Notes: generated by a model not told the origin, from the sequence alone. A stretch of DNA of 64,000 bases from Promethearchaeati archaeon SRVP18_Atabeyarchaeia-1 (GCA_037308085.1 CP147779.1:1216001-1280000); one strand, 5' to 3'. Counted from the stretch's first letter, positions 34,788-62,761 are shown. Numbers and translations: made by a program.

Positions 34788-35192
34788 TTGCCAAAACCCC
34801 TCAGTAGAGAGGAAGCGAAGAAACCCAAGAACGCCCCGACAGCTCCAACGGGAAGAGGAGCCACGCTATTCCACTACGGCGTCGCGTTTTCTCTCATAGC
34901 ATCCCTACTGATTATCGCTGAAGGCATCAAGATCATCATCTACTCGCCTCTGGCCTACCACATCCCGCTTCTTGCGGATTTCGGAGGGTACCTCAACCTC
35001 CTTTTCGGCATCATCGCGCTAATCGGGTTCATCGGCGTAACCTTGGCGAGCGGGCATAAGAAGGTCAAGAACATCAGCGCAGCCATGATTGGCCTCTTCT
35101 CCATCTTGAGCTTAATATTCTTCGGAGGAGGATTCTACCTAGGATTCATACTCGGTGTATTCGGTGCGCTCCTTACGGCGGCGCGGGAATGA
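34788..35192 (+). CDS. Small membrane protein (about 4 TM)
   Basis: Hydrophobic segments ending GGGFYLGFILGVFGALL; RBS GGTGGAG. Confidence 0.7.
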   Translation: MPKPLSREEAKKPKNAPTAPTGRGATLFHYGVAFSLIASLLIIAEGIKIIIYSPLAYHIPLLADFGGYLNLLFGIIALIGFIGVTLASGHKKVKNISAAMIGLFSILSLIFFGGGFYLGFILGVFGALLTAARE

Positions 35193-35355
35193 GCAAGTAG
35201 TATGATGAGGCTGGGCAGAAGCGCATACACCATCCTTATTTAAGATTCCAGCCAACGTTTACAGTCCTGTTTTGGAACAACCGCACTGCAAGGTCATGAT
35301 ATATATGCAACGCATTGTTTAGGATTATGCCACGTTAGAAGAGGAGTGATGTCTA

Positions 35356-35742
35356 ATGTCTCAAATCATCGTAGACGGCGGCGATCTTGCAAAGTCTAAG
35401 GGCGACTCGATGGCAAGATTAGCCGAGTTCTTGAACGGCATTCGTTCGCTCAAGGTACAGGCCAAAGTAGGTGGAAAGGGAATAACAATAACGCCGAAAG
35501 AGGCAACGGCAAAAGCCCCAACCAGGAAAGGATCGAAAAAGAAAGGCAAAAAGGCCTCTGGGGCGGAGACGGCGACCGCGGTCATCTCGAAGACTAAACT
35601 GAAAGTATACCTGAAGAGATTCATCAACAAGGAGGGGCTTAGTGACGGGATGAGGGTCATCTCCAGTGGACCTGACGGCTTCACTTTCCATGAGAAACCG
35701 ATACTCGGAGAACAACTCGCGCCTTTGGAGGGAGAAGAGTGA
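35356..35742 (+). CDS. rpl22e: Eukaryote-type ribosomal protein eL22 homologue
   Basis: ISKTKLKVYLKRFINKEGLSDGMRVIS resembles eL22 [26 protein letters not shown]; N-terminal IVD...L.EFL; acidic tail; strong RBS GAGGAGTGA. Confidence 0.7.
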   Translation: MSQIIVDGGDLAKSKGDSMARLAEFLNGIRSLKVQAKVGGKGITITPKEATAKAPTRKGSKKKGKKASGAETATAVISKTKLKVYLKRFINKEGLSDGMRVISSGPDGFTFHEKPILGEQLAPLEGEE

Positions 35743-35828
35743 AAACCTGCTCTGGCATAAAGGGCGGGTTCCTCAATCCTCCTTTTCTGATTCTCAGTCA
35801 GACAAGTTGAAAGCTTATTAGAGTTCTG

Positions 35829-37058
35829 TTACCTCTGCGGCTGATAACCGTTTAGGTCAACTTCTCCGCTTTGGCTCATAGCCTTGTTGAAGGGACTAAT
35901 CACTGCTACACGTGCGGAGCGATCCAGGGTGAACCGCACCCTTTCATCTTGGGCTTTAAGCATGTTCAGACAAGCATTTACATGTCGATCTATTCCGCAG
36001 CATTCTAGGGTTTTCGCTTTCGGGTCTCGCATGATACACCCACACACCGCGCATACCCTAGAAGTGTTCCAAGGACTCACTTTGACGGCTTTGACTCCTT
36101 CCCAGAGAGCCTTGTACTCGATGAAGCCTTGTAGCCTGTGGAAGCTCCACGAGTTCAGCCTCCGCTTCAGCCTCTTGGAGCGCACGCTGATCATCTGGAC
36201 CTTCCCGTTGAAACTGTTGACGCCTAGTGCTTTCCTGTTGATTGCCCTGCGGATGTGTCTAAGGTCTTCGAGAATAATGCCTTGCCCTCTGTTCTTCGCT
36301 TGCCTAACTATTGCTGAACTCACCTGATGCAGCATCGTGTTGACTTTGTTGTTCTGGTTAGCGAACCATCTTCTCTGGATCTTCGTCGCCACCCGCCTAT
36401 CCTTAGCGTACTTGGATTGAGCTCTCCGCACCCGCTCAAAGTACCCTTGCCTAGCCTCTGAAACTCCTGACAAGTCGTGGCTTTCAACAGCCAGTTCTCC
36501 GCCTTCTCTTACGTAGGCTCCATCTATTGAGCGTTCATTCGTGTCGTACGCCACGTAGCTCCCTGGTTCGGTAATCTCAGCGGTCTTCGAGAAAACCACT
36601 GAAACCGTGGAAGCAGTCAAGGTCACTGAGCCTAACTTGAGCGCGGCGTCTGATAGGAACTGTGCCGCCCTCTTGTGGAGGGGGACGTAGAAGTACTCTC
36701 TGGGCTTGATCGGTATTCTCAGCTTGCCGTCAACGACCTTGTAGGCTTGGTTTCCCAGTTTAGCCGTGAGCTTCGTAGCTCTCGGCACTCGAGCGTTCTG
36801 GCGCCTTCTCCTCTTCGCTTTCCGGTAGTTCTTCAGGATGGCGGTGGCAGCCTCTGTGGCTGAGAGGCTGTACCAGGTGTGGAGACCGAAACCACTTAGC
36901 TGGTGGTAGACCTCGCTTTGCAGGCTGAACCTCGAGGTCACATTCTTCTCCAGGCCGACGCGGATGCAGCAGTTAACCATGGTTCTGAAGGTTTCTAGTA
37001 GGCTGAGAACACGACTTGTAGGCTCGTACGGTATCTGCACCGCTTTAATTGCCTGCAT
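35829..37058 (-). CDS. tnpB: TnpB family RNA-guided nuclease (RuvC-III Asp replaced by His)
   Basis: RuvC-I YVAYDTNE, RuvC-II IILEDL, W.F..LQGFIEYKA, NTSRVCAVCG, DRHVNA. ATG 37058 lies 24 nt below TTTAAATA. Confidence 0.9.
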   Translation of the reverse strand: MQAIKAVQIPYEPTSRVLSLLETFRTMVNCCIRVGLEKNVTSRFSLQSEVYHQLSGFGLHTWYSLSATEAATAILKNYRKAKRRRRQNARVPRATKLTAKLGNQAYKVVDGKLRIPIKPREYFYVPLHKRAAQFLSDAALKLGSVTLTASTVSVVFSKTAEITEPGSYVAYDTNERSIDGAYVREGGELAVESHDLSGVSEARQGYFERVRRAQSKYAKDRRVATKIQRRWFANQNNKVNTMLHQVSSAIVRQAKNRGQGIILEDLRHIRRAINRKALGVNSFNGKVQMISVRSKRLKRRLNSWSFHRLQGFIEYKALWEGVKAVKVSPWNTSRVCAVCGCIMRDPKAKTLECCGIDRHVNACLNMLKAQDERVRFTLDRSARVAVISPFNKAMSQSGEVDLNGYQPQR

Positions 37059-37081
37059 AAAACCAAATAAGCCAAAAATCT

Positions 37082-37089
37082 TATTTAAA
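37082..37089 (-). promoter_or_regulatory. TATA box of tnpB (leaderless transcript), inside element E1
   Basis: TTTAAATA on the minus strand, 24 nt upstream of ATG 37058 and just inside the TIR. Confidence 0.65.
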
Positions 37090-37237
37090 CTCACCAACCG
37101 CAGAGGTAACAGATCCCTTATTAGGTAGGATTGTAAGATCACAGCATGCTCCTAGATACGCGCGACGCATCTAGGCTTGCTAGAGGAGCCGTGTCGGGGA
37201 AGCGCACTCTGATGGCTACTCGGAAGAGGCGATTCAC

Positions 37238-38032
37238 TTGCCAAAGGTAAAATGCAATGACATAAACATCTGTTATGAGGTTCAAGGTAAGGGGTATCCG
37301 CTTGTAATGATAATGGGGCTATCCGCCAACATGGACTGGTGGGATCCAAAGCTAATCGAGGAAACCTCGAGGAAATACAAGATAGCCATCTTCGATAATC
37401 GTGGCGCCGGGCGCACCGACGCACCCAAGATTGACTATTCCATCAAGATGTTCGCCGACGACACAGCAAAACTAATGGACAACCTGAAGATACAGAAAGC
37501 ACACGTACTCGGCATCTCAATGGGGGGAATGATAGCACAGGAATTCGCTCTTACCTATCCACAGAGAGTTGAGAAGCTCGTCCTCTGCTCAACTAGCTGC
37601 GGAGGGATCAAATCAGTGCCTCCAGCACCCAAAATAATGAGCGTCTTAAGTGGCGGTGGAGCAAGGACACCAGAGGACCTGGTAAAGAATACTATCCCAG
37701 TCCTCTTCACTGAAGACTTCATTAAAGGCAATCCTGCCTTCATAAAAGTGGTAACTGAGCGACTTATGAAGGCGCCAATTGCGCTCGACGCGTATATGCG
37801 ACAAGTAAAAGCGATTATGGCGTGGGACACGTACGCTCGGCTTCCGAAGATCAAAGCGCCCGCGTTAGTGATGCACGGTAAGAAAGATATTCTTGTTCCT
37901 CCAGAGAACGCTAAGATCCTAGCTGATAGAATACCAGGGGCAAAGCTTGCATACTTCGATAATAGCGCACATGCACTTTTCTCGCAGGAAACTGACAAGG
38001 TGATCAGCACTCTGCTTCAATTTCTTGCATGA
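37238..38032 (+). CDS. Alpha/beta hydrolase (enol-lactone hydrolase-like)
   Basis: FDNRGAG, GISMGG nucleophile elbow, HGKKD, SAH. Confidence 0.9.
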   Translation: MPKVKCNDINICYEVQGKGYPLVMIMGLSANMDWWDPKLIEETSRKYKIAIFDNRGAGRTDAPKIDYSIKMFADDTAKLMDNLKIQKAHVLGISMGGMIAQEFALTYPQRVEKLVLCSTSCGGIKSVPPAPKIMSVLSGGGARTPEDLVKNTIPVLFTEDFIKGNPAFIKVVTERLMKAPIALDAYMRQVKAIMAWDTYARLPKIKAPALVMHGKKDILVPPENAKILADRIPGAKLAYFDNSAHALFSQETDKVISTLLQFLA

Positions 38033-38036
38033 CTAC

Positions 38037-39002
38037 CGCTCTGTTAACTCTTCGGGTGACAGTTGGTGCCGTTAGCTTCTCGGCCGTATGGTGGCCTTAT
38101 TAGTCGAAGTACCCCCTTTTTCGGGCAAGCAGGCGGTCAAAGCCGTCAAGCAGAGCTACACGCCACCAACCGAACTACTCAGCCTCCTAGACGAGTTCAG
38201 AAAGATGGTGAACGACTGCATACAAATCGGTCTGGCTGAGAATGTTACGTCGATGAAGGCGCTCTCAAAGAAAGCATACCGTGAACTCGCACGATACGAC
38301 GCGCCAACCTACTACCGTCTGACTGCGATTAGTAAAGCTACCGGGATCCTTCGGAATTATGGGCACGCGCTGAGGAAGCTGCAGAGGGTGAAGAAGCCCT
38401 ATGCAACAAGGCTCATGCTCACTGACTGCTACGGCTTCAAGATAATTAATGGCGAACTCAGACTGCCCATCAGGGCAAGAGAGTACATCCATGTTCCGCT
38501 GAACGCCTACACGTTGCAGTCTATTGAGGGTTCGACTGTCCGTTCAGTCTGCTTGAGCGCCTCCGCCCTGTCATTAGCTTTCTCGAAGGAGGTTACTCAG
38601 GCTGAGCCTGCGGGTCTAATCGGGGTAGACCGCAACCTCGACAACGTAACCGCTGCATCCTCAAACGAAGGTGTGAGGAGGTATAACCTGTCAAGGGCAA
38701 CCGATATCAAGGAGAACTGCAGGCAGGCCAAGCGGGGTTTCAAGCGAGGCGATTGCCGAGTCATGAAGCAGCTCTACTCCAAATATGGGCGAATCCAGAG
38801 GAACAAGGTAAACTGGATACTGCACAACACCTCAGCAAGCATAGTGGAGCAGGCGAAGGAGAAACAGTTCGGCATAGTCATGGAGGACATCAAGGGCATC
38901 CGAAAACTCTACAGGAAGGGAAACTGGCAGGGCAAGGACTACAGGGCGAGGATGGAGCAGATGCCACCCAGCTAACTCTTCAACCGAAGAGTTAACAGAA
39001 CC
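38037..39002 (+). mobile_element. Second TIR-bounded TnpB element, internally deleted (E2)
   Basis: TIRs at 38037-38055 (CGCTCTGTTAACTCTTCGG) and 38984-39002 (rc GGTTCTGTTAACTCTTCGG), 17/19; flanks CATGACTAC / CACGAGTAC (7/9, degenerate). Confidence 0.8.
38088..38975 (+). pseudogene. tnpB: 3'-truncated tnpB
   Basis: LLDEFRKMVNDCI, RuvC-I IGVDRNLDN and RuvC-II IVMEDI are present. The ORF ends YRARMEQMPPS without the Zn finger or RuvC-III. Confidence 0.85.
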
Positions 39003-39246
39003 CACGAGTACTCTCCTTTTTCTTTTGATCTGAAGCAGACGAATCCATCGTCGAACTCAAGTTCACATGTTTTGATGGCGGTATTACGCTGATCGTCTCA
39101 GTAGACGATCCAGAACATACTAGCCTTGGAAAGGGATAAAAGTGCCGCGAACTCATTGATGTGTTAAGCATGGTAGGAGATGTCTTCGGCAAAGTATCAC
39201 GTGGGGGCGGTCACTGAAGTCCACGGAGTAAGAAGAGGTAGTCGAC

Positions 39247-39747
39247 ATGACAAAAGAAGTTAAGGTACTCATTACGGGTCCCTATCGAGTAGGAAAGTCA
39301 ACCCTAGTCAGATCGATGACTAGTGGAAGGGCCATTAACATAGATCGACGCGGCACAACGGTATGCATGGACTACGGCTACATCGACCTCGACGGGATCA
39401 GACTTCACCTCTTCGGAACACCGGGACAAGAAAGATTTGCCATCATACGGGAAGTACTCTCCACGGGCATGAGAATATTGGTCATGGTAATAGACTCGAC
39501 GAAACCAGACTCCATCGCGCAGGCAAAGAAGATCTTCGGTCAGCTAGCAATGAAAGATGTTCCGTGCATAATAGCCGCCAACAAGCAGGATTGCCCAGGC
39601 GCAATGACCCCCGCAGAAGTCCAGAGAACGATAAACCTTCGAATCCCGACTGTGGGCACTTCGGCAGTCTCAAGAGGCGGTGCACAACAGTTACTCGCAG
39701 AGATGTACAAAGCCGCTCTGAAAGTCCCAGCTTCACTTATGTCCTAG
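39247..39747 (+). CDS. Small GTPase (MglA/Ras-like)
   Basis: G1 GPYRVGKS, G2 GTTV.MDYG, G3 FGTPGQERF, G4 NKQD, G5 TSA. Confidence 0.9.
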   Translation: MTKEVKVLITGPYRVGKSTLVRSMTSGRAINIDRRGTTVCMDYGYIDLDGIRLHLFGTPGQERFAIIREVLSTGMRILVMVIDSTKPDSIAQAKKIFGQLAMKDVPCIIAANKQDCPGAMTPAEVQRTINLRIPTVGTSAVSRGGAQQLLAEMYKAALKVPASLMS

Positions 39748-39831
39748 GGAGCCGACAAGGAGCGCTTCCTATCTCTTTCTTCTGGAGCAGTGGCAAGCGG
39801 GAATCGCAACCAGAGGATTTGATTGCCACGG

Positions 39832-40578
39832 TCATTCCGTCTTCAGGCGTATTCCCGTGCTGGCAATCTCATACTCGACGGGTTTGAGACTGTGCGTGGT
39901 TCCACGCATTTTCAGGATCTCAATATAGCGCTTTCTTTCCTCAGTGCCTTCACTCATGGTTCTCAGAGATATCACGCCATCTGTAAGGAACGAGTCAAAC
40001 CCGAGTGGAACCCTGTGTTCAAGGCCCTGCACATTCTCTGATGTTAGGAGCGCCGTGACAAGGGCAGCGCCCAGAGTCCTGATGATCGTGGTGATGTCGT
40101 ACCGCGTCTCGAACGGGTCCTTCCTACTCTGCGCAAAAGGAGTTACAGAGTCTATAACTACCCTCTTAGCATTGATCTCCATGATGTTCTTGTTTATCAC
40201 AGAGATTAGTTCCCCAACGTGAAATCCCTTCGCACCTAGCGCAGTCTCGTCTCCAGGGATAGCATAAGTCATCTCGCGATCAACAACAACCCTAACTGGG
40301 CTCACGTCGAGAACACGCAGCGAACCCTCAGCATCACACTTCGCCAGGTCGAATCCAAGCTCCTTCGCATTCTCAAAGAGTATCTCCTTGGGCTCCTCCA
40401 TAAGAGTGACGAGAACACCATTCTCCTTATGGTTGACTATCCCATCCAGCAAGAACTGCAGACCAAAGGTCGTCTTACCAGACCCAGGATCCCCCGACAC
40501 CAGAATAGATCTACCCTTCGGATAGCCGCCATCAATTAGCTCATCAAGTCCCGGTACACCTGTTGAAACCCGCTCCAA
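39832..40578 (-). CDS. KaiC/RAD55-like RecA-superfamily ATPase
   Basis: STGVPGLDEL.GG, Walker A GDPGSGKT, Walker B VVIDS, DGVI, ILKMRGT.H. Confidence 0.9.
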   Translation of the reverse strand: MERVSTGVPGLDELIDGGYPKGRSILVSGDPGSGKTTFGLQFLLDGIVNHKENGVLVTLMEEPKEILFENAKELGFDLAKCDAEGSLRVLDVSPVRVVVDREMTYAIPGDETALGAKGFHVGELISVINKNIMEINAKRVVIDSVTPFAQSRKDPFETRYDITTIIRTLGAALVTALLTSENVQGLEHRVPLGFDSFLTDGVISLRTMSEGTEERKRYIEILKMRGTTHSLKPVEYEIASTGIRLKTE

Positions 40579-40918
40579 CTAGACGCAACCCCCACAACCG
40601 ACGATAGAAGCGACGAAAAGATCGTTGCAGACATTAACACTAGGTAATTCATTAGTGACACCGATTATTTATGGGTTTCCTAAATCGGGATCGGGATCAT
40701 TTCCTTCTTCTTAATCCAAAATGTGCAACGCCTACTGAAAACCAGCTGCCACTGTACGTGGTAATTGCAGACTCATGCGGCCAATAACGGAATACGAATA
40801 AAGGATCAGAACCCGCAAACATGGAGGCCCGTTTCTAATTCAAGCTCGGACGACAGGAAATTGGGGAAAAAAAAGGAGGGGATTAGACTTTTCTTAGCGG
40901 AATTGCGCAGCAATCAGC

Positions 40919-42499
40919 CTACTTTATACTGACAGCCTTGGAACCAGACCTTTTTCGCATGAACATCAGACCAGCAACAACAATGATGGCACCCAGTGCA
41001 CTGACAATCAACAGCATCGTTGGTAGGCCGGATGGACTAGTTAGAGGCGACAACTCCACAGTGTAGGTATACGCTGGGTCGTCACACACATATAGCACGC
41101 CAGTCGCGGACCAGTATTGTGTCGCGTTCACTGGTGTCCTTGTCCCACTATCGACTTTCCAAACGGCCTTGACAGTGTACCCATCAGGAACTGCAAGTTT
41201 GAAGTACACCCAGTCTCCGAGAGATACCTTCGACAAGGTAACGTTGCGGATGCCGCCAGTGCCAGTCACTGCACCCGTGTGATCCACGAGTTGATCGGGC
41301 TCGCCAGTTCCATTGGTCGCAAAGTCAGGGACCCCATCCCAGCCATAGTCGACGAAGAACATTGTGCTACCGCCAAAGTGAGTGCTACCCTGTGCGCCAC
41401 CCCCGGTGACATCAATCTGATGGGCATAGCTGCCGTAGTAGACTATAACACCGACCTTCTTCCACACAATCGTTGCGTTCTCAGGAACCTGTATTTCATA
41501 CGTGTTCAATGACCATTGTCCACCACTGTCCGCAGTCTTGACTTCCCAGTTACTTGTAACCGCGAGTCCAAGGTAAAGTCCAAGCTCAGCAAAGACGTTG
41601 ATATCATACTGAATGTTGACATACATATGAAGCGCATCGCTGTAGCCACTGATGCCCCCATGCCCAACTACTGCAAAGTCGACTACCAGGTCAATGAATC
41701 CTCCCGCCATCAGGAGGATGTTGTCAGGCGAGGTTCCACTTGTCTTCCATACGTCAATTTTGCCAACACATTTCACAACATTGAAACCGCCTTGGATTCC
41801 AGGTATGTTAAGATCCTGGAGTGCTGTGGATACCTTACTCCATACCGAATTGAGTGCGCCTTGTATTCTGTTTCGTAGCCAAGCGCTGAAATCCCACTGA
41901 ACATGGTTTACAACGTAGTTTGTTCCTGTCCATGTGTCATTTGCGTCTGTGAACTTAATCGTCAGAGGATTGGCGCTACCAGTATGAGTGACAGGGTCTA
42001 CGCTCTCAATTGCTGGGAACGGAATACTGAAGTTCTTCGTGGTTCCTGTCGGAATAAGCCATTTGGCGTCCCAACTTGTGCTAGAATTCCACTTATTGTA
42101 GAACACATTCGCTGTGCCATTCACGTCAATGTTTACGTCGATCACCAGCATCGCATTGACAGCAATGGTTGCCGTGACAATTCCTGTTGACGTGCTAACG
42201 TTTATGTCATGGGCCGCAACTGATATCTTGGCACCTATGTACAGCTTGTTGACGTTGATGCTGTAGGAATGGAAACCAGCAATGTTTGTAGTGATGATAA
42301 CGTGTCCTGACGCGTTGATCCAGGCCATGAGAGTCCCGTTTACGTCATACAAGAGTGATCCAGGGATGGTCATAGCCATTTGCCGTTGAGGTGCCGCCTC
42401 ATTCTGCTGTGTCGAAGTTGCTGTCGCTGGAGATGCGAACGCTGCTGTTGTCGCTAGAATTGCGATGAAGAGTGCTGCGAAGATAGCTTTACCATTCAA
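40919..42499 (-). CDS. Secreted, C-terminally membrane-anchored cell-surface glycoprotein
   Basis: TTG 42499 after GGGGAGAT; signal peptide; many N-x-S/T sequons; beta-rich body; C-terminal TM helix plus RKRSGSK. Confidence 0.75.
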   Translation of the reverse strand: MNGKAIFAALFIAILATTAAFASPATATSTQQNEAAPQRQMAMTIPGSLLYDVNGTLMAWINASGHVIITTNIAGFHSYSINVNKLYIGAKISVAAHDINVSTSTGIVTATIAVNAMLVIDVNIDVNGTANVFYNKWNSSTSWDAKWLIPTGTTKNFSIPFPAIESVDPVTHTGSANPLTIKFTDANDTWTGTNYVVNHVQWDFSAWLRNRIQGALNSVWSKVSTALQDLNIPGIQGGFNVVKCVGKIDVWKTSGTSPDNILLMAGGFIDLVVDFAVVGHGGISGYSDALHMYVNIQYDINVFAELGLYLGLAVTSNWEVKTADSGGQWSLNTYEIQVPENATIVWKKVGVIVYYGSYAHQIDVTGGGAQGSTHFGGSTMFFVDYGWDGVPDFATNGTGEPDQLVDHTGAVTGTGGIRNVTLSKVSLGDWVYFKLAVPDGYTVKAVWKVDSGTRTPVNATQYWSATGVLYVCDDPAYTYTVELSPLTSPSGLPTMLLIVSALGAIIVVAGLMFMRKRSGSKAVSIK

Positions 42500-42600
42500 A
42501 TGCTTTATCTCCCCACATTTCCATTTTGTTTCGCGTTGATCCCACTGTATGCCCACCGTCGCTTAAAAATGTTGAGGACGTAATCGGTGTATGAAGAATG

Positions 42601-42676
42601 TATATAAATGTATATTTTTAGAATAATGGCTATTTTGTGTGGCAAAGACTGCTGTAAAATATATATAAATGTATAT
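42601..42676. promoter_or_regulatory. 15-bp direct repeat TATATAAATGTATAT (two copies, 61 bp apart), candidate operator pair
   Basis: Exact copies at 42601-42615 and 42662-42676 in an AT-rich divergent promoter region; quasi-palindromic. Confidence 0.55.
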
Positions 42677-43026
42677 CTGATATGACTTGGGAATGTTAGA
42701 TCCCTAATGGAAAAGCTGTCTGAGAGTGGGGAGTGAGGTGGAGAACTTGGGTAATTTCCTGCCCGTAGAAGGACATCTCAGCCCCAAGCCCCAAGATGAT
42801 GCAGACCAACGGTAGGCTGGACGTAGAAGCTGCGGAACGTCGAAGCCGATAAGATATTTAACGTGAAGGCGAATGATGTACATCTCTCATGAAGACGCAC
42901 CTAACATCAGGCATCACACACCTGAGTATCCAGAGAGAATGCATTGCGTCACAAGTTGGCAGAGTTGCACACGAATTTCCTGAAAAGAGTTATTGGGTCA
43001 GAAATTCCCGATGAGATGCTCAGCGT

Positions 43027-43635
43027 ATGGAGAAGAGCTATAGTCCGCGCGAGGCTGCAGCCATACTTGGCGTTGCAGTGCACACCATTCAAGTATGGGA
43101 CAGACAGGGCAAGATACGCTGCGTCAGGCTACCTTCTGGCCGGAGGCGTGTTCCCGAGAGCGAGGTTAGACGCCTCCTGAACGTAAAGGAGGAGAGGAAA
43201 GACGCAATATATGCGAGGGTTTTCTCCAGCAACCAGAAGGGAGAACTCGAGAGGCAGGTAAGCTTACTGAAAGAATTGGCGCCCAGCGCGGTAGTGTACA
43301 CCGATGTTAGATCTGGCTTGAATTTCAAGAGGAAAGGATTATTCCAGCTTCTAGAGGATCTCGTCGACAGGAAGATCGCCAGACTCTTCATTGCGCACGA
43401 AGACAGGCTTGCAAGGATCGGATATGAGCTCATATCATGGTTGTGCGAGAAATACGGCACAGAGATAATCGTCGCAGAGAAGGAGGTAAATCCTTCTCTC
43501 CGACAAGAGTATGGCAAGGATATGATTGCACTCAACATGGCATTTTCGGCGAAGCTTTTCGGGTTGAGGAGTCATAATACAGCTAGGATTCTTCGAGCTG
43601 TAAAGGACGCCATAGCCGAAACGAGGTCTTCTTGA
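43027..43635 (+). CDS. tnpA: IS607-family serine recombinase (TnpA) with catalytic Ser replaced by Phe; no adjacent tnpB
   Basis: N-terminal MerR-like HTH, AIYARVFSSNQK.ELERQ (canonical YARVSS..Q), SGLNFKRKG, HEDRLARIG, FSAKLFG.RSH. Confidence 0.85.
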   Translation: MEKSYSPREAAAILGVAVHTIQVWDRQGKIRCVRLPSGRRRVPESEVRRLLNVKEERKDAIYARVFSSNQKGELERQVSLLKELAPSAVVYTDVRSGLNFKRKGLFQLLEDLVDRKIARLFIAHEDRLARIGYELISWLCEKYGTEIIVAEKEVNPSLRQEYGKDMIALNMAFSAKLFGLRSHNTARILRAVKDAIAETRSS

Positions 43636-43703
43636 ATCGGAGATGAAGGTGCGATTCGCCAAGCCAGGATTATTCATAATGTGGGAGGGGGAATGCTAGA
43701 TAT

Positions 43704-44387
43704 ATGAGAATTTTCGCATCACGCAAGGTTAGGATGGAGGCTATCGAAGATTCTGGCGTGGCAACGTCGTTTGACCGTATAACCGGCATGCCTCAGTTTG
43801 GGCTTCTCCTGCGGCTATTTACCTTGAAGGCGCTCAGCAGTCAGAGTGGCGGTAGAGTCATTGACATCGGTTGCGGCGGAGGGCGACTTGTCCTCAGGCT
43901 TGCGAAAAGTTATCCCTTTGAAGAAGTCATCGGTCTGGACCTGTCTGACAAGATGCTGAGGCTAGCTAGAAGGAGGGCGATAGATGCAGGTCTCGGTGAT
44001 CGAGTCAAGTTCAAGGAGGGGAACGCGGAAATGATCCCATACCCCAGCGGATCGTTTGATCTGGTTGTGAGCACTCTGTCCTTGCATCACTGGTCGAGAC
44101 CAGAGCTTGTCTTCGATGAGATTGCGCGGGTTCTTAGGCCTGCGGGAAAGTGTGTGTTGGGAGACATGCGCAGAGATCCCATGCCCGTATTCACGGGGCT
44201 TATGTGGGTTGTAACGCATTTCATAGTTCCACGCTCTCTGAGGCGCGCAGGAGAGCCTCTTGGGTCTCTGCAGTCAGCATACACGAAGGAGGAGACCTCT
44301 GCCTTTTTGCAGAAGTCCAAACTCGGAGCCTTCAGCAAGGTCACAACGGGACCATTCTGGCTAATCATCAAAGGAAGAAAAATGTGA
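43704..44387 (+). CDS. Class I SAM-dependent methyltransferase
   Basis: VIDIGCGGG, GLDLS..M, FDLVVS...HH, RVLRP.G. Confidence 0.9.
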   Translation: MRIFASRKVRMEAIEDSGVATSFDRITGMPQFGLLLRLFTLKALSSQSGGRVIDIGCGGGRLVLRLAKSYPFEEVIGLDLSDKMLRLARRRAIDAGLGDRVKFKEGNAEMIPYPSGSFDLVVSTLSLHHWSRPELVFDEIARVLRPAGKCVLGDMRRDPMPVFTGLMWVVTHFIVPRSLRRAGEPLGSLQSAYTKEETSAFLQKSKLGAFSKVTTGPFWLIIKGRKM

Positions 44388-44432
44388 TGCGCGTAGCAGA
44401 ACAGGCGGGTTGAAGTAGATACTCTATCTCAA

Positions 44433-44701
44433 GGTTCTGTCAAGTCTTCGGTTGATGACTCGACTGACTCGCATCGACTTTCAGGATTACCTTTCCTTCC
44501 GTTCCGAGGGTTCCTGTACCATCGCTTCACCTGCGAGTCCCTTCAGGCCGAACCACAGCCCTGCACCTGCTTCCACGTCTACACAGGTTCTCTCTTTCCC
44601 CTCCGCCTTCAGCTATAAAGCCACATACCGCGGAGCGAGAAGACTCTTAGACTCACTACCCCGTTCCCAACATATAAATCAACCATAGACTTTGCAGAGC
44701 C
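44433..44701 (-). mobile_element. 269-bp MITE-like derivative of the TnpB elements carrying only a promoter and an omegaRNA-like scaffold (E3)
   Basis: TIRs GGTTCTGTCAAGTCTTCGGTTGAT and rc GGCTCTGCAAAGTCTATGGTTGAT (19/24); flanks TATCTCAA (44425-44432) and TATTTCAA (44702-44709); TTTATATG at 44671-44678; interior aligns with the 3' end of E1. Confidence 0.8.
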
Positions 44702-44844
44702 TATTTCAACAAAGAATTTATATAGAAGTATGATTCGCCTTCTAGGAAGGATGAATATTACCATAAGGTAACAAATAGCGTTGTCTCCACTGCTTAGAGA
44801 CAGCGTTGAACTGACTCTATTTAGGGACTCGGCATAATCTGAAC

Positions 44845-45651
44845 TTGTCACTAAAGTCAACTCTAAACCAGCAAGTTGTCTTGCCCTTAACGATGGGACA
44901 TGTCATGTCGGAGGCGTTGACGGGTTTGGCGTCTCACAAGGATCAGCGTAGCACTTCAGGCAAGGAAAAGACCAAGATGCTAGGCGAGGCATCTGAGGAG
45001 ACAAACACGCCGGAAGCCAGTGAAGCGCCAAGAGAGGAACAGAGCGCAACACCGACGACGCCGATCGCAGATCCCATGGAAAACGAACTAGAATTATTGC
45101 GGAAATCACTTCAGGAGGAAAAGGATAGAGCGGAACAATACCTTGTTTCGCTCAAGTACCTGAAAGCTGAATTCGAGAACTATCAGAAGAGATCCGCAAA
45201 GGAAATGGATGAACTCGCCAAGAGGGGAAGCGAGAGGCTTGCCCGAAAGCTGCTCGGAATCGTGGATGACATCGAGAGAACAATTAATGCATGCAAGGCT
45301 GTAGGCGACCAGAGCAAGCTGCTCGCTGGCGTCGAGATGATCCTAAAAGAACTCGTCAATACCCTCAGAAGCGAGGGAATATTCAAGATAGAGGCAGTCG
45401 GCAAGAGGTTTGATCCTCAACTTCACGAAGCTATCATGGTGAAGAAGACAGACGAATGTCCTCCTGGCACTGTGGTTGAGGAGTTGAGAGCCGGCTACAT
45501 GTTTGATGGCAGAGTCATTAGGCCAAGCATGGTAACGGTGGCAAATCCGCCTGACCGGCAAGGCAGTCCTGAGCCAGAAAACAAGGTGAAAGGTGGGGGA
45601 GGGCAGAGGACAAGCAGTGGTGTTGACAAACGACCCCTCCACGAAACATAG
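44845..45651 (+). CDS. grpE: Nucleotide exchange factor GrpE (true start probably 44926 or 44977)
   Basis: AEFENYQKR, LL.IVDDIER, FDPQLHEA, GY....RVIRPSMV.V. Confidence 0.93.
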   Translation: MSLKSTLNQQVVLPLTMGHVMSEALTGLASHKDQRSTSGKEKTKMLGEASEETNTPEASEAPREEQSATPTTPIADPMENELELLRKSLQEEKDRAEQYLVSLKYLKAEFENYQKRSAKEMDELAKRGSERLARKLLGIVDDIERTINACKAVGDQSKLLAGVEMILKELVNTLRSEGIFKIEAVGKRFDPQLHEAIMVKKTDECPPGTVVEELRAGYMFDGRVIRPSMVTVANPPDRQGSPEPENKVKGGGGQRTSSGVDKRPLHET

Positions 45652-62628: not shown

Positions 62629-62761
62629 GGCTGAGACACATCCCTCGTCTACTGATTGAAGCAAGAGGTTTCGATATTCTATGACTCAGATCTGAGAACA
62701 GATTTTAAGGTTTGTTGCCTCTGCGGTTGTTGATATCGGTTTGAGGTAGCTTCTCCGCTAT

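Follow-up and report, generated by a model that had tools for sequence, protein, structure and literature searches.

Probable IS6-like non-autonomous elements with TnpB and guide-RNA cargo in the genome of an Atabeyarchaeia archaeon

TnpB, from which Cas12 descends and which serves as a compact tool for genome editing, has the accepted role of restoring the donor site after scarless excision, a role tied to IS605 and IS607. A stretch of 64,000 nucleotides from Promethearchaeati archaeon SRVP18_Atabeyarchaeia-1 (GCA_037308085.1, CP147779.1:1216001-1280000), here called the window and numbered from its first letter, raises the question of what moves a tnpB gene that lies between terminal inverted repeats (TIRs) and 8-bp target duplications. 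A first-pass annotation had proposed for three elements of the window, E1, E2 and E3, that TnpB and its RNA were captured by a DDE transposon of the IS6 type and mobilised in trans. The analysis of the window and of the host genome (2.81 Mb, single contig) led to the conclusion, held with high confidence, that E1-E3 are IS6-like non-autonomous elements carrying a TnpB/guide-RNA module.

E1 carries the tnpB type referred to as family A. Its TIRs agree at 17 of 19 positions, AGTTCTGTTACCTCTGCGG (35822-35840) versus the reverse complement of 37098-37116 (GGATCTGTTACCTCTGCGG), and its scaffold lies entirely inside the 3' end of the tnpB reading frame. The features of E1 are:

35822..37116, minus strand: E1, 1295 bp, intact non-autonomous family-A element with tnpB and guide-RNA scaffold between IS6-like inverted ends
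35814..35821, no strand: E1 target duplication, copy beside the guide-RNA end, CTTATTAG, matching 37117-37124 at 8/8
37117..37124, no strand: E1 target duplication, second copy, CTTATTAG
35822..35845, minus strand: E1 right end (in tnpB orientation), inverted repeat, containing the tnpB stop codon and the predicted 3' strand of the last scaffold stem
37098..37116, minus strand: E1 left end, inverted repeat
35822..35971, minus strand: E1 guide-RNA (omegaRNA-like) scaffold, model R2 match with 177 bits, compensatory pairs
35829..37058, minus strand: E1 tnpB, 409 aa, intact; RuvC-I D, RuvC-II E and zinc finger present, RuvC-III reading DRHVN (D to H)
37082..37089, minus strand: TTTAAATA box about 25 nt upstream of the E1 tnpB ATG, candidate archaeal promoter

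E2 belongs to a sister family, family B, its TnpB being 37-39% identical to family A. The TIRs again agree at 17 of 19 positions, CGCTCTGTTAACTCTTCGG (38037-38055) versus GGTTCTGTTAACTCTTCGG (the reverse complement of 38984-39002). The flanks agree at 0/8 in a strict 8-bp reading and at 7/9 in a 9-bp reading (CATGACTAC versus CACGAGTAC). A deletion, with its junction at 38954/38955 as placed from the loose ends of intact copies, has taken out the zinc finger, RuvC-III and the scaffold except its last 48 nt.

38037..39002, plus strand: E2, internally deleted family-B element, 966 bp versus about 1260 bp in intact copies
38028..38036, no strand: E2 decayed duplication, left copy, CATGACTAC
39003..39011, no strand: E2 decayed duplication, right copy, CACGAGTAC
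38025..38027, plus strand: TTG just beyond the E2 duplication, candidate family-B target-adjacent motif (TAM)
38088..38975, plus strand: E2 truncated tnpB, 295 aa, without zinc finger and RuvC-III
38955..39002, plus strand: leftover family-B scaffold of E2, last 48 nt (terminal stem and right end), 43-48 nt of which match family-B and miniature elements; partial R1 match

E3 is, judged from its sequence, a scaffold-only (guide-RNA-only) miniature element. Its TIRs agree at 19 of 24 positions and its flanks, TATCTCAA and TATTTCAA, at 7/8. Over its first 135 nt E3 has 76-80% identity with the closing 135 nt of intact family-B elements taken as reverse complement, and a motif, GGTTGATTTATAT, in the region of its promoter-like box is common to the miniature elements. 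The guide-RNA-only nature of E3 and the TTA/TTG motif described below had been missed by the first-pass annotation.

44433..44701, minus strand: E3, 269-bp miniature with inverted ends, TATA-like box and family-B-type scaffold, encoding no protein
44425..44432, no strand: E3 duplication, copy beside the guide-RNA end, TATCTCAA
44702..44709, no strand: E3 duplication, second copy, TATTTCAA
44433..44573, minus strand: E3 guide-RNA scaffold, model R1, 156.9 bits
44683..44701, minus strand: E3 left end, inverted repeat
44671..44678, minus strand: TTTATATG box directly inside the E3 left end, putative promoter
44710..44712, minus strand: TTG just beyond the E3 duplication, candidate TAM

The boundaries, TIR counts and flank qualities originally given for E1 (perfect duplication), E2 (degenerate flanks) and E3 were all reproduced. 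The same is true of two further observations: inner end positions agree between both ends within each of E1, E2 and E3, and no transposase is encoded in any of the three.

The ends were then considered genome-wide. In the window, the end pattern was matched eight times against 1.76 expected, and none of 100 shuffles reached eight. The search for the TIR consensus and its flanks gave 24 end pairs in the genome, namely 11 of family A (E1-type tnpB), four of family B (E2-type tnpB), seven miniatures of 257-381 bp, E3 among them, and two bearing a transposase; a looser 299-bp pair at 2346131-2346429 was excluded from this count. Duplications of at least 7/8 were found at 15 of the 24 pairs, and the next eight bases outward, which served as a control, matched at 4/8 or less (binomial tail about 1e-44). 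A chance origin of the end pairs and duplications is thereby excluded. Perfect 8-bp duplications are seen in other genomes as well. Almost all right ends and most left ends read GGTTCTG, with a GG start and G at position 7, and the left ends of family B differ consistently from its right ends in the first three bases. The 11 family-A copies share 71-87% amino-acid identity. About 17 other tnpB genes are present in the genome, and no such inverted ends were found at them. At two of these genes, o1964k and o2422k, CAGAACC near the 3' end was tried as an element end and rejected, as homology runs past CAGAACC. Two family-A copies, 813620-814847 and 2135115-2135847, have internal deletions and good ends with no matching duplication (3/8 and 2/8), which would be the expected leftover of inter-copy recombination or intramolecular transposition.

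A search of the genome with the Pfam model DDE_Tnp_IS240 (PF13610) resulted in two genes, scoring 65.4 and 63.7 bits (cut-off 27). Both are located inside elements bearing the same ends, and the best NCBIfam match of both transposases is IS6, over positions 1-201 of the 202-position model. In genome coordinates these elements are:

614149-618567: Tn614, 4.4 kb, 25-bp perfect family-A-type ends, duplication TGAAAAAA/TGAAAAAC
549276-555829: Tn549, 6.6 kb, family-B-type ends, perfect TGGAGAAC duplication

Transposase-bearing and tnpB elements have in common subfamily-specific ends of 24-25 bp together with 8-bp duplications. Since each TnpB family has a matching transposase-bearing element, transposition in trans by these enzymes would be the simplest reading. 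The IS6-like DDE chassis acting in trans that had been proposed is supported by Tn614 and Tn549, which were what the search for an autonomous DDE gene with the same ends returned. The longer transposase carries an N-terminal SWIM zinc finger; the Tn614 transposase lacks this finger and may be truncated at its N-terminus. The catalytic signature, E--N---R-R, is closer to the archaeal E--F---K-R than to the bacterial E-DH---K (comparison in PMC6807381). Tn549 carries a 995-aa Eco57I/MmeI-like methylase-type protein, and Tn614 an HxlR-type regulator, a DUF5678 protein and several unknown open reading frames. No tnpB was found in six end-bounded transposase elements, and the sole tnpB match among 12 transposase loci stands beside a partial transposase fragment in locus L047. 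No scaffold was found in Tn614 and Tn549 with models R1 and R2. LC30 and genomes of Bathyarchaeia and Nitrososphaerota hold orthologous SWIM/DDE transposases (54-73% identity). Four of those from Bathyarchaeia and Nitrososphaerota are located in 2.2-3.8-kb elements with ends of the same type, and three of the four elements have perfect 8-bp duplications.

The last 140-150 nt of family A, family B and the miniatures form a conserved structure. Among ten sequences of family B and the miniatures the paired cells amount to 94.7%; sliding the partners lowers this to 44% or less. Eight pairs are compensatory. With 29 sequences drawn from several archaeal lineages the paired share is 89.8%, with compensatory changes in 23 of 30 pairs. 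Family A has the same design, in which GCCTG...AGGC becomes GGGTG...CACCC and TAG..CTA becomes CCG..CGG; a model made from family B (R1) finds the family-A scaffolds, and the family-A model (R2) finds those of family B. In the last stem an upstream segment pairs with the inner half of the right end, 6/8 pairs being compensatory, as in GTTAACTC/GAGTTAAC, GTTACCTC/GAGGTAAC and GTCGAGTC/GACTTGAC. The last of these includes G-U pairs, which point to RNA. That the right TIR is part of the RNA scaffold had been claimed earlier, and the compensatory changes support its inner half as the predicted 3' strand of the last scaffold stem. As the variant of the right end is found in the left end too, three sequences (left end, right end and RNA stem) change in concert. 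In the 381-bp miniature at 763237-763617 a family-B scaffold is joined to family-A-type ends; pairing in its last stem is kept through a change of the upstream strand to GTTACCTC, and the element looks like a natural end swap with compensation. The tnpB frame of both families spans the whole scaffold, and the stop codon, TAA or TGA, is located inside the right end (window 35829-35831; locus L034 1423-1425). The T/C variation in the right terminal repeat preserves this stop codon.

An Rfam scan of 35000-45500 gave no family at E values of up to 1. In a small metatranscriptome, contigs with zero mismatches cover parts of the E1 tnpB. A 264-nt RNA contig spans 44299-44561, that is, the E3 scaffold and 134 nt of flank, across the right-end junction, and a second RNA contig crosses the right-end/flank junction of the miniature M673k. 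No contig of the same metatranscriptome covers the hydrolase gene, E2 or the GTPase gene.

The E1 TnpB matches PF07282 with 51.9 bits (cut-off 26.3) and TIGR01766 with 62.2 (cut-off 32), and NF040570 with 89.7, below the cut-off of 100 (E 2e-25). The PDB matches of the TnpBs are TnpB and Cas12f. The canonical D, E and DRDEN are present in family B, as read from intact relatives of E2. Related TnpBs with ends of the same type were found in metagenome-assembled genomes (MAGs) of Bathyarchaeia, and more degenerate ends in Nitrososphaerota and another Bathyarchaeota MAG; the relatives L039 and L042 have degenerate ends with perfect 8-bp duplications. In a TnpB tree, which has one misplaced fragment row, family A forms one clade (100/100), and family B groups with the LC30, Bathyarchaeia and Nitrososphaerota relatives (98/99). 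The two families join at 86/90, and the pair without TIRs, o1964k and o2422k, is in the same open fork.

Empty sites were searched for in related genomes. In LC30 (G001), an Asgard MAG of the same genus, the L22e-like gene and the hydrolase on either side of E1 are separated by about 200 bp, and the two neighbours of E2, the hydrolase and the conserved block after it, by about 90 bp. These short spacings indicate that E1 and E2 are both missing at the syntenic locus. The E2 site of LC30 has one copy only, ATAACTAT, where the window has CATGACTAC ... CACGAGTAC around E2. The intergenic DNA of LC30 is diverged, and at the E1 site one copy of the duplicated bases can be made out only roughly. In a genome of the same family (G002) the locus is shorter by about the lengths of E1 and E2, as judged from match coordinates alone.

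When the copies were oriented by their scaffolds and the three bases just beyond the duplication on the far (left-end) side were compared, a one-sided motif was observed. Family A has TTA in 6 of 11 copies and A as the third base in 9 of 11. Of the 11 family-B and miniature copies, six have TTG at the strict offset and four more have it with a 1-nt offset. With the strict offset, 13 of 22 elements show TT at positions -3/-2, versus a background of 6.7% (p about 1e-10); the four copies with the 1-nt offset are additional to these 13. The motif is not enriched on the mirror side. A copy in G002, an independent insertion, has TTA and a perfect TATATGAA duplication; TTG with perfect duplications is seen in four of five further G001 and G002 copies, and a Nitrososphaerota copy has TTG and a perfect ATAAGTCT duplication. 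Among five transposase-bearing elements, two here and three in other genomes, the motif is present on one side out of ten, the TTA side of Tn614. On an empty allele the TTA/TTG would stand directly before the guide-matching sequence, a position that fits a candidate TAM. That it is a working TAM used for homing or retention is given slightly better than an even chance.

From these sequence comparisons we infer transposition in trans, guide formation by read-through, TAM function and homing; the D-to-H TnpB of the E1 family may or may not cut DNA. E1 would be an intact cargo element, E2 an old copy of the sister subfamily, and E3 a set of ends, promoter-like box and scaffold. The SWIM-zinc-finger/DDE_Tnp_IS240 transposases of the two larger cargo transposons would move E1-E3 in trans, and insertion would make the 8-bp duplication. 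The right end would have a dual role, as a transposase-binding repeat and, in its inner half, as the 3' strand of the last scaffold stem. Transcription would pass through the right end into the flank, so that the guide would start with the 8-bp duplication; on the minus strand, 35814..35821 would supply the first 8 nt of the E1 guide and 44425..44432 those of the E3 guide. As the guide-matching sequence is preceded by TTA/TTG on an empty allele, TnpB could cut empty alleles, and repair would copy the element in (homing or retention). Self-cutting would be avoided, since at an occupied locus GAACC instead of TTR stands before the guide match, and the left junction matches over 8 nt only. Taken as a whole, this explanation (IS6-like cargo elements moved in trans, a right end with two roles, a TAM-like motif and possible homing) is considered likely.

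Several observations weigh against this explanation. The NCBIfam IS6 scores of the two transposases, 120.7 and 116.1, are below the cut-off of 125, and Harmer and Hall dispute the family membership of archaeal IS6-like elements, none of which has been experimentally tested (PMC6807381). These two points qualify the earlier assignment to the IS6 family. Pairing in the 29-sequence covariation alignment is favoured by the fact that these sequences were aligned to the model itself. As for the RNA contigs, they lack strand information and may derive from neighbouring genes, which makes them a weak hint of expression. In E1 itself the motif position reads TAC, not TTA. All family-A copies have D and E but DRHVN, with H for the RuvC-III aspartate, so that the E1-family TnpB may not be a standard nuclease; the same change is kept in a large TnpB clade that was judged likely active and is without zinc finger (PMC10691335), whereas family A keeps the finger. 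No empty-allele joint was found across 35300-45000 in the contigs of four public metagenomes from near-identical populations, which therefore give no evidence of polymorphism. The E1, E2 and E3 junctions are occupied wherever a metagenome contig bridges them, and the joints listed are short-sided and from other copies. About 85% of the copies stand beside the motif, which is hard to explain by a random-insertion transposase and homing. Finally, IS6 and IS26 form copy-in cointegrates without excision, and a restorative-homing role would not apply as such.

In an alternative reading the elements are still IS6-like non-autonomous transposons, but TTA/TTG reflects where the transposase or its complex prefers to insert, and TnpB is irrelevant to where the copies are located. 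The target preference of the transposase and the TAM coincide in IS605 and IS607 (PMC13565253), Tn614 has TTA on one side, and the differing first three bases of the left and right ends of family B could make the transposition complex asymmetric. An insertion preference is nevertheless regarded as unlikely: the motif is one-sided and follows the scaffold orientation, it differs between the two TnpB families, and it is missing on nine of ten sides of the transposase elements. Furthermore, a DDE complex normally gives a symmetric target preference. The proposal that TnpB is an RNA-guided DNA binder or regulator, or a selfish addiction-type module, rather than a homing nuclease, with the guide otherwise used or unused, applies especially to the E1 family. 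It draws on the conservation of DRHVN in every family-A copy, on published nuclease-dead TnpB regulators (PMC10691335, PMC13565253), and on the fact that IS6-type copy-in leaves no empty donor site to restore. Such a non-homing cargo seems improbable, given the canonical D, E and DRDEN of family B and the presence of the family-A change in a published clade judged likely active (PMC10691335). The elements are also multicopy and mobile, unlike immobile regulatory TnpBs, and the position of the motif fits cleavage or binding of empty alleles.

The ends themselves could belong to the IS200/IS605 or IS607 type, handled by a Y1 or serine TnpA, or derive from an ISL3 or IS256 donor. The genome does encode Y1 TnpA and serine recombinases, three of each, and one serine recombinase gene (43027-43635) is located between E2 and E3. 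These genes adjoin other tnpB genes or stand alone and are unlinked to the elements described here. Enzymes of both types make no paired inverted ends or 8-bp duplications (PMC13565253), and the roughly 17 other tnpB genes are without such ends. The identical 24-25-bp ends bound IS6-like transposase genes, so that ISL3 and IS256, named as alternative donors in the first-pass annotation, or any other donor, are not needed. Ends or donors of these kinds are therefore highly improbable, and IS6-like elements moved in trans are retained as the preferred explanation.

TnpBs associated with DDE transposases are not without precedent. Six such branches (DDE-1 to DDE-6) with inverted terminal repeats were described by Altae-Tran et al. 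in 2023 (PMC10691335), together with solo TnpBs that have near-identical ends and are probably mobilised in trans. A 2026 review names ISL2, IS630 and IS1031 as DDE-TnpB transposases (PMC13565253). Since DDE-linked TnpBs with inverted ends of these families were published in 2023, the present elements are a variant and not a new kind; the distinct OMEGA architecture claimed for them holds for the IS6-like partner and the layout, and does not hold as something unprecedented. As in DDE-1 to DDE-6 and the solo TnpBs, TnpB and guide RNA are located between inverted repeats, the 3' end of tnpB is near the transposon end, and mobilisation in trans is presumed. The transposase here is IS6-like (DDE_Tnp_IS240 and SWIM) and not among the named families, a distinction that is based on the families named in these sources only, so that an overlap with DDE-1 to DDE-5 is possible. 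Also unlike DDE-1 to DDE-6, tnpB is never within the transposase element here, the right end is placed in the scaffold by covariation, and the candidate TAM lies outside the 8-bp duplication. The kind of system is thus known, and what is new is the IS6-like partner, the strictly trans arrangement, the shared end and RNA stem, and the placing of the candidate TAM outside the duplication.

With IS6, IS26 and the archaeal IS6-like elements, the elements share the DDE_Tnp_IS240 core, GG ends with G at position 7, 8-bp duplications, an N-terminal zinc finger in the longer members and rare miniatures. A review of the IS6 family lists 8-bp duplications, short GG ends, long members with zinc fingers, two miniatures and one passenger-carrying member, and no tnpB cargo (PMC7986276). 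Literature searches gave no paper linking TnpB to IS6-type elements. Unlike typical IS6 elements of about 0.8 kb, the transposase-bearing elements here measure 2.2-6.5 kb with cargo and have longer ends (about 24 bp); they depart from the compact single-gene IS6 format of about 0.7-0.9 kb.

The tnpB-only elements of the IS200/IS605 group (IS1341-type, e.g. ISDra2) resemble E1 in having a single tnpB, a scaffold that overlaps the 3' end of the gene and stops at the right end, a guide taken from the flank, and a short T-rich TAM on the far side (guide and TAM being predicted here). IS200/IS605 elements differ in that they have no inverted ends or duplication and move single-stranded by means of a Y1 transposase. 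Here the 8-bp duplication lies between the left end and the candidate TAM, unlike the arrangement in IS1341-type elements. Fanzor in DDE transposons is likewise an RNA-guided nuclease in transposons with inverted ends and target duplications. However, the 5' duplication of Fanzor elements is read as part of the TAM (PMC13565253), whereas here the duplication would be guide-matched and the motif is located beyond it, and the host is archaeal, not eukaryotic.

The remaining observations concern the surroundings of the elements. An L22e-like protein (35356-35742; weak Pfam match just below cut-off) and an Arf/Ras-type small GTPase (39247-39747) are encoded beside the elements, and these neighbours fit an Asgard archaeon as host. 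The gene at 43027-43635 (plus strand) encodes an IS607-type serine recombinase with MerR-like helix-turn-helix and resolvase domains, and has no tnpB beside it; a methyltransferase gene comes next. The recombinase has no relation to E1-E3. At 62708-62759 a 52-nt remnant (AGGTTTGTTGCCTCTGCGGTTG...) resembles a family-A right end and the adjoining 3' part of the scaffold. It has no partner end and no scaffold-model match, and is for this reason probably a decayed solo end. A terminal-repeat-like sequence, GGTTCGGTAATCTCAGCGG (36565-36583, plus strand; two mismatches to the pattern), is kept inside the tnpB coding region of the family-A copies and may be a coincidence or a cryptic end.

Several consequences follow for the study of TnpB. 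Surveys that count all tnpB-only elements as IS200/IS605 (e.g. PMC13343696) would misassign the elements described here. In practice, the analysis yields a pair of small TnpBs from archaea, each with a defined scaffold and a candidate TAM (TTA or TTG). The elements also show that a single sequence can be under constraint from three partners at once, namely both ends and the RNA stem. Restorative homing has been argued to suit only excising transposons, and the elements offer a testable natural case of OMEGA homing in which duplications are made and excision is possibly absent, a question raised as open in the same review (PMC13565253). Tentatively, and at somewhat less than an even chance, a TnpB clade of at least three archaeal lineages (Asgard, Bathyarchaeia and Nitrososphaerota) may be a long-term passenger of an IS6-like DDE transposon, mobilised in trans, with a 24-bp end that doubles as RNA stem, a guide started by the duplication and a TAM beyond it. 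In such a clade TnpB would be a homing drive of a non-restorative kind, and the persistence of insertions would largely depend on it. If true, this would be the first OMEGA homing on a transposon that probably does not excise, possibly operating across polyploid chromosome copies.

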